The notes under the pieces were generated by a model. That model did no database searches and was not told the DNA's origin. It saw only the letters and a program-made list of their open reading frames with translations. Source: an uncultured Erysipelotrichaceae bacterium (lineage in GTDB: Bacteria > Bacillota_I > Bacilli_A > RFN20 > CAG-826). Taken from it: a DNA stretch of 64,000 nt. Both the position numbers and the translations under genes were made by a program. The stretch spans positions 698 to 64,697 of the forward strand of contig CADBNT010000064.1 in assembly GCA_902796125.1 (NCBI GenBank), given 5' to 3'. This document shows positions 51,154 to 51,364 of the stretch, one piece after another (position 1 is the stretch's first letter; each line of letters starts with the position of its first letter).

Positions 51154-51364
51154 CTACTTCTTAAAATCCGCATACCATTCTGCAAATTGTTTAAGACCTT
51201 CTCTTGAACTTGTTGATGTTTTATATCCGAAGTCTTTTTTCTAGTGTACTTGTATCTGTGTATGTAATTGATACATCGCCTACGGCATAGACTTTATTGC
51301 CTTGGGCTGCAATAATAGAATTGCTTAACACAACGTATCCAGTACCAGTAACATAAATTTTCAT
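51154..51364 (-). pseudogene. Deletion scar: in-frame fusion of a ugd N-terminus (about 28 aa) to a UDP-GlcA-epimerase C-terminus (about 40 aa), then frameshifted
   Basis: The reverse-complement reading [28 protein letters not shown] matches the start of the ugd at 28499-29734 ([28 protein letters not shown]). It then continues directly as [15 protein letters not shown]..., matching the end of the epimerase at 16129-17190 ([36 protein letters not shown]). A +1 slip in an A-run breaks the frame, and the tail [28 protein letters not shown] resumes in another frame. The ATG lies 2 nt after the stop of the sugar-transferase gene. Confidence 0.7.

Follow-up and report, generated by a model that had tools for sequence, protein, structure and literature searches.

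Gene remnants are a recognised class of anomaly in O-antigen and capsule clusters, where they are read as traces of relatively recent rearrangement, and they made up 9 of the 68 anomalies recorded in a survey of E. coli O-antigen clusters from 178 serogroups (PMC7685785). The 211-base remnant described here (window 51154-51364, minus strand; the window is the whole 64,000-nucleotide stretch of DNA that was analysed) lies inside a surface-polysaccharide cluster, locus 2, of a cattle-rumen bacterium and resembles those cases in being the leftover of truncated sugar-precursor genes in an otherwise intact polysaccharide cluster. It differs from the O-antigen remnants in that a mapped microhomology junction unites what is left of the two ends of a two-gene block, in that a natural intact allele is available for comparison, and in its host, an uncultured low-GC (33% GC) rumen bacterium and not an enterobacterium. 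A further parallel is pneumococcal type 33E, which is reported to arise from loss of WciE (PMC10462825); one capsule-locus gene was lost while the rest stayed intact, as happened in locus 2 to two precursor genes, but there a glycosyltransferase was lost and the structural change was demonstrated, whereas here precursor genes with a second genomic copy were lost and the case is known from sequence alone.

The module concerned consists of ugd and a UDP-glucuronate 4-epimerase, of which the B. cereus enzyme has been described (UGAepi, PDB 6zl6; PMC7984243), with Arg185 binding the UDP-GalA carboxylate (PMC12338863). Intact relatives of the module, in locus 1 of the window and in the rumen-metagenome contig L071, have the full dehydrogenase architecture, and their SDR epimerases conserve the catalytic Tyr/Lys as well as the Arg that binds the carboxylate, whereas the remnant keeps 28 and 41 terminal codons, is devoid of catalytic residues and has partly lost the NAD-binding glycine motif. 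We regard it, with a probability of about 0.9, as a non-functional deletion scar of adjacent ugd and epimerase genes, fused in frame by chance at an AG microhomology and frameshifted later. The scar was correctly spotted by the first-pass annotation but is an ordinary pseudogene remnant, and remnants in polysaccharide clusters are already well known.

Structure of the scar and its homology to locus 1

All features of the scar and its flanking genes lie on the minus strand. Upstream is an intact PglC-like initiating phosphoglycosyl transferase (51366-51974, 202 aa, Pfam Bac_transf E 6e-48), whose TAG stop (51366-51368) is separated from the ATG of the remnant (51364) by a spacer of 1 nt, as in the intact allele, and not by the 2 nt given earlier. 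Codons 1-28 of ugd follow (51281-51364; NCBIfam NF011631 positions 1-29, aligning to L071 4768-4852) up to the deletion junction at 51280-51281, a dinucleotide AG common to both parental sequences, beyond which are the last 41 codons of the epimerase (previously put at about 40) with the original TAG stop at 51154-51156 and one inserted A (51154-51280). The 1-nt slip noticed in the first pass was confirmed as this extra A, which turns A5 into A6 at 51235-51240 within a G-A6-G (51241-51234); intact and related copies read GAAAAAGA or GAAAGAGA at that run, with A5 in the remnant on the related contig L070 and in the locus-1 copy, AAAGA in L071 and A6 in the scar. The insertion creates a premature TAA at 51221-51223, leaving a 47-aa junk ORF (51221-51364, MKIYV...TLEKRLRI and stop) that was called as gene P0001 on the independent contig L085, and a shift of one base after G-A6-G lets the reading resume for 26 aa to the stop at 51154-51156. 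The ATG of the next gene, an intact Wzx flippase (49541-51145; Pfam Polysacc_synt; 90% aa identity to P0122 of L071), lies at 51145, 8 nt past the original epimerase stop.

No catalytic part of either enzyme survives in the scar, which is thus a relic of ugd and epimerase and belongs to neither enzyme family. The three-domain ugd architecture (PF03721, PF00984 and PF03720; ~390-410 aa) is gone and codons 1-28 alone remain, while the epimerase part starts at codon 298 of 338, so that the positions of the catalytic Tyr149/Lys153 and the carboxylate-binding Arg185 (B. cereus numbering) are deleted.

The homology of both parts to the genes at the two ends of locus 1, as claimed in the first pass, was borne out by alignment, with similarity above chance over both segments. 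In a tblastn search of the six-frame window, the 28-aa ugd head matched the locus-1 ugd at 29707-29624 with 78.6% identity (E 2.5e-10; next best match in the window E 1.5; shuffle z-score 19), and the frame-corrected epimerase tail matched the locus-1 epimerase at 16266-16150 with 76.9% identity over 39 aa (E 8e-18, z 33); moreover, 29-30 of the 41 tail residues are identical to many epimerase tails. At the nucleotide level the ugd part (84 nt) is 69.0% identical to locus 1 and 70.2% to L071, L071 and locus 1 being 77.4% identical to each other. For the epimerase tail (123 nt) the corresponding values are 69.1%, 76.4% and 74.0%, with 81.3% to the L070 remnant, and for its first 93 nt they are 73.1%, 75.3% and 80.6%, with 91.4% to the L070 remnant. 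At 69% identity to locus 1 for each part, the scar is a diverged, old paralogue of the locus-1 genes and not a recent copy, in agreement with the first reading.

Both locus-1 relatives are intact. The ugd gene (28499-29707, minus strand) scores 309 bits with NCBIfam TIGR03026, above the cutoff, and its best match is the UDP-glucose 6-dehydrogenase model NF011631 (E 4e-167). The UDP-GlcA 4-epimerase-like gene (16129-17190, minus strand) has as its nearest solved relatives PDB 5u4q (E 2e-112) and, from B. cereus, UGAepi (6zl6; E 1e-46), and the equivalents of Tyr149, Lys153, Thr178 and Arg185 are conserved in the alignment to 6zl6. No NCBIfam equivalog scored above cutoff for the intact epimerase, and the putative assignment of the intact relatives as 4-epimerases is based on PDB homology, the conserved residues and adjacency to ugd. 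Compared with L071, the locus-1 proteins show 87% (ugd) and 83% (epimerase) aa identity. The ugd start had been placed at 29734; this is merely the start of the longest ORF, with a 9-codon N-terminal extension (MILFFRGFN), and since the internal ATG at 29707 (MKIAVAG...) corresponds to the start of the ugd orthologues in L071 and L010, it is most likely the true start.

The intact allele and the mapped deletion

The first-pass annotation had suggested looking in related genomes for an intact block at this position, and such a block is indeed present, with collinear flanks, in three rumen-metagenome contigs (L071, L072 and L073), which are identical to one another in this region and carry PglC-ugd-epimerase-wzx at exactly the position of the scar. 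Their order is PglC(202)-ugd(402)-epimerase(338)-wzx(535)-423-Wzy(421)-GT(365)-GT(360)-GT(348)-deacetylase(258)-337, the L071 ugd having three UDPG_MGDP_dh domains, and locus 2 has the same order minus ugd and epimerase. L071 was found via a downstream gene, the homologues of the locus-2 Wzx forming a graded series from 90% to 47% identity. Other searches returned no such block: a search of genome contigs with the PglC protein gave 66 loci, none with ugd and epimerase directly after a close PglC, and in L003-L005, whose three PglC proteins are close relatives (80-82%), other cassettes follow. A search of metagenome contigs with the reconstructed 69-aa chimera gave one locus, an unrelated epimerase (L069), and no intact block. 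The protein search with the same chimera yielded just two matches, P0001 (the ORF of the scar itself) and P0002 (the remnant in L070), and no ugd, the 28-aa part being too short for the word index. With the extended epimerase tail, all 120 matches listed were shorter than 200 aa, and we attribute the short lengths among these listed matches to partial genes at contig ends and to candidate selection, not to biology.

Comparison of locus 2 (minus strand) with L071 by blastn gave two segments: 3545-4221 of the window minus strand aligned to L071 4176-4852 (75.5% identity; PglC and the first 85 nt of ugd), and 4220-12963 aligned to L071 6869-15608 (81.5% over 8.7 kb; the epimerase tail and the remainder of the locus). 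Two nucleotides of the window belong to both segments, and a single clean gap covers 2,018 bp of L071, beginning at ugd codon 29 and ending at epimerase codon 297. In the three-way comparison the ugd side reads ...GTCTATGCCGTAG/ATGTC (in short, ...GTAG/ATGTC), the epimerase side ...CAAAAAG/GCGATGTACC (in short, ...AAAG/GCGATGTA) and the scar ...GTCTATGCCGTAGGCGATGTATC, with the slash at the junction; GATGT occurs a few bases beyond the junction in both parents. The exact breakpoints in the ancestor and the deleted length are extrapolated from the nearest intact allele, which is not a close one (its flanks are 75-81% identical at the nucleotide level).

In L071 ugd and epimerase are adjacent, with a 2-nt spacer and starts 1211 nt apart, offset by 2 frames, which is why removing 2,018 nt (2 mod 3) leaves the fusion in frame. 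This join is a one-in-three chance outcome and gives no sign of precision. Of the precise in-frame event proposed initially, the in-frame join is confirmed and the precision is not: the junction has a 2-nt microhomology, the prior for staying in frame is one in three, and the frame was lost again through the extra A. The postulated deletion itself likewise stands, as a loss of two adjacent genes only (2,018 bp) and not of a locus-1-like cassette with genes between them, and the match to the two terminal genes of locus 1 reflects homology without shared architecture.

On these data we infer the following order of events and a microhomology-mediated mechanism. Ancestral locus 2 would have had the order PglC - ugd - UDP-GlcA 4-epimerase - wzx and onwards, and a single illegitimate recombination at the 2-nt microhomology (AG) would have removed ~2.0 kb, leaving the initial 28 codons of ugd joined to the final 41 codons of the epimerase, a join that happened to be in frame. 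Afterwards, +1 slippage in the A-run (A5 to A6) would have broken the frame, and several substitutions would have accumulated at residues conserved in functional copies.

Alternative explanations and decay of the scar

Since the window appears to derive from a rumen metagenome and its closest matches are metagenome contigs, an assembler might be thought to have collapsed or mis-joined two paralogous ugd/epimerase pairs. Two rumen-metagenome contigs (L001 and L002) carry the exact PglC protein and, base for base, the scar including A6, and L085, which comes from another project and was seen in 2 samples, is 100% identical over 771 nt; the scar is thus 100% identical in three further assemblies from different samples or projects, which identifies it as a feature of the natural population, and a fixed one, rather than an assembly error. 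The scar is, further, just 69% identical to each locus-1 copy, which is too low for a join with them, and a mis-join with locus 1 was rejected for this reason; the junction is a 2-nt microhomology and not a repeat. An artefact is accordingly scarcely credible. It is also very unlikely that a whole locus-1-like cassette (ugd, many GT, flippase and polymerase genes, epimerase) once separated PglC from wzx and was lost in its entirety. The thought is prompted by locus 1, which begins with ugd and ends with the homologous epimerase ~11 kb away, but L071-L073, the only intact alleles found, have the two genes next to each other and their remaining genes match locus 2 one for one, an epimerase directly abuts wzx in L077 as well, and downstream of the scar locus 2 is already equipped with wzx, wzy and GTs of its own. 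We rejected the whole-cassette deletion on account of the adjacency in the intact alleles.

A function of what is left, either as a micropeptide or as a spacer for translational coupling or expression of wzx, could be argued from the retention of the original start context (1 nt downstream of the PglC stop), from the native 8-nt spacing between the epimerase stop and wzx, and from the fact that the remnant has not eroded away. The frame is broken 75 nt before wzx, however, and any coupling via the old epimerase stop is lost with it; L074, L075, L078 and L079 run from PglC to wzx through unrelated gaps of 52-260 nt with no detectable remnant. Scans of the scar for promoters and terminators gave no signal exceeding shuffles, an Rfam scan of it gave no match, and the ORF was found in near-identical strains only, diverged relatives having either intact genes or no detectable remnant in place of a conserved open frame. 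The functional fusion was rejected because the frame is broken and not conserved, and we see little chance that the remnant does anything, preferring the non-functional deletion scar described above.

Substitutions in the scar are consistent with decay. GxGxxG is the N-terminal NAD-binding motif of ugd, and the scar reads GTGYVV where 6 of the 6 intact ugd copies compared read G(T/I)GYVG, so that a glycine of the motif is lost. In the tail it reads GDVS for GDVP and KTST for KPST/KPxT, the proline being kept at both places in the epimerase tails examined. Compared with L071, pN is 0.15 over 69 scar codons, against 0.10 over 65 of the same codons between L071 and locus 1, a difference that supports decay only qualitatively. 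Because the dN/dS of the scar versus L071 is still low (about 0.12 over 69 codons, with dS saturated), the argument for relaxed constraint depends on a handful of substitutions. The scar sits on a long branch. The rest of locus 2 is intact and under purifying selection, and it still looks functional: every gene, from PglC through wzx, the 423-aa gene, wzy and three GTs to the deacetylase, has its full length, with dN/dS of 0.06-0.12 versus L071 (0.08 for PglC, at 82% aa identity, and 0.07 for wzx).

Synonymous divergence from L071 differs sharply across the scar, with a dS of ~1.9 for PglC and a pS of 0.76 for the ugd part on one side, and a dS of ~0.73 for wzx and a pS of 0.55 for the tail on the other. 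This step is suggestive of a mosaic whose recombination boundary lies close by. The tail is, in addition, far closer to the L070 remnant (91%) than to L071 (75% over the same 93 nt), which hints at recombination or mosaicism beyond a simple story.

Precursor supply, the cassette family and neighbouring elements

The only intact ugd and epimerase within the window are those of locus 1, 22-35 kb away, and these would supply UDP-GlcA and UDP-GalA in trans, which is most likely why the loss was tolerated; as an alternative, the polysaccharide may simply have lost its uronic acid. The scar is probably co-transcribed, because it lies inside the operon between PglC and wzx, and it encodes nothing useful. 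Between an acyltransferase gene (52143-53270) and PglC there is a terminator-like hairpin (14 pairs, then a T-run; 52077-52107, minus strand), so that transcription of locus 2 probably starts just upstream of PglC.

The main use of the finding is in annotation, which should mark the 47-aa ORF as a pseudogene remnant and record that locus 2 has no UDP-GlcA/UDP-GalA supply of its own. The scar opens no new biological question. Contigs L071-L073 and the lineage of the window form a natural intact/deleted allele pair in rumen populations, which can be used to ask whether two polysaccharide loci share precursor genes and whether loss of ugd and epimerase changes the surface polymer.

Four other contigs of the same wzx/wzy/GT cassette family carry ugd and/or epimerase next to wzx: the epimerase is directly before wzx in L077, ugd is before and epimerase after wzx in L080/L081, and the epimerase is after wzx in L082. 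Their epimerases share 57-83% identity with those of L071 and locus 1, and the recurrence of the module beside wzx in the four contigs suggests that the product of the cassette contains or needs a uronic acid. In other members of the family the gaps between PglC and wzx are short and unrelated (68 nt in L074, 52 nt in L075/L076, 213 nt in L078 and 260 nt in L079), and a search for remnants in those of L074, L075, L078 and L079 gave nothing significant; ~25 nt of the L074 gap resemble the epimerase 3' end, below significance. The slot before wzx thus varies across the family, being intact, scarred or empty. That loss of ugd and epimerase is recurrent in the family, marking either sharing of precursors between the two loci or selected loss of an acidic sugar (for example under phage pressure), is a tentative and rather unlikely reading. 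A variable defence island lies directly between the two polysaccharide loci.

This island (29744-40798, minus strand) comprises a GmrSD_N gene (39653-40798), a CBASS cyclase (36599-37876) with a SAVED effector (37860-38657), an AAA_14/DUF4143 gene corresponding to PADLOC PDC-S01 (34039-35289), a 1003-aa Metallophos protein corresponding to PDC-S60 (31031-34042) and a DUF2971 gene corresponding to PDC-S31 (29744-30511). In a related genome (L070 5844-10324) a different CBASS (SMODS, E2, SAVED, TIR) occupies the slot after the homologue of the GT2 gene at window 40901-41647. Next comes an epimerase 3' remnant of 107 codons, in which a TGG has become the nonsense codon TAG. Although placed where locus 1 would end, this remnant shares only 75% identity with the locus-1 epimerase of the window over the 93 nt for which it is 91% identical to the scar tail. 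Within the island, a 157-nt stretch (window 38718-38874 versus L070 8977-9133) is 86.6% identical, above the neighbouring genes. Its plus strand has the look of a piece of coding sequence (...FFDGFIDTKGTGATMDSKDNVIIDKKPSCEYNICLYILEELYDKG), and the stretch may be another gene remnant.

Further partial genes were observed in related loci. Right after the close PglC (82% identity) of L003 there is a truncated start of a cytidylyltransferase (TagD-like; 26 aa, ~5630-5710), at the place of which L004 has an intact 139-aa cytidylyltransferase gene (878-1297). In other metagenomes P0092 (L083 6001-6528) and P0095 are chimeric ORFs made of part of a Bac_transf (PglC-like) gene and an epimerase tail, and P0092 adjoins a resolvase/recombinase element in a visibly decaying polysaccharide locus. 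In locus 1 of the window, a 160-aa gene of the UDG superfamily (uracil-DNA-glycosylase-like; 28006-28488, minus strand) lies between ugd and a DegT-type aminotransferase, and would be an odd passenger for a polysaccharide locus.
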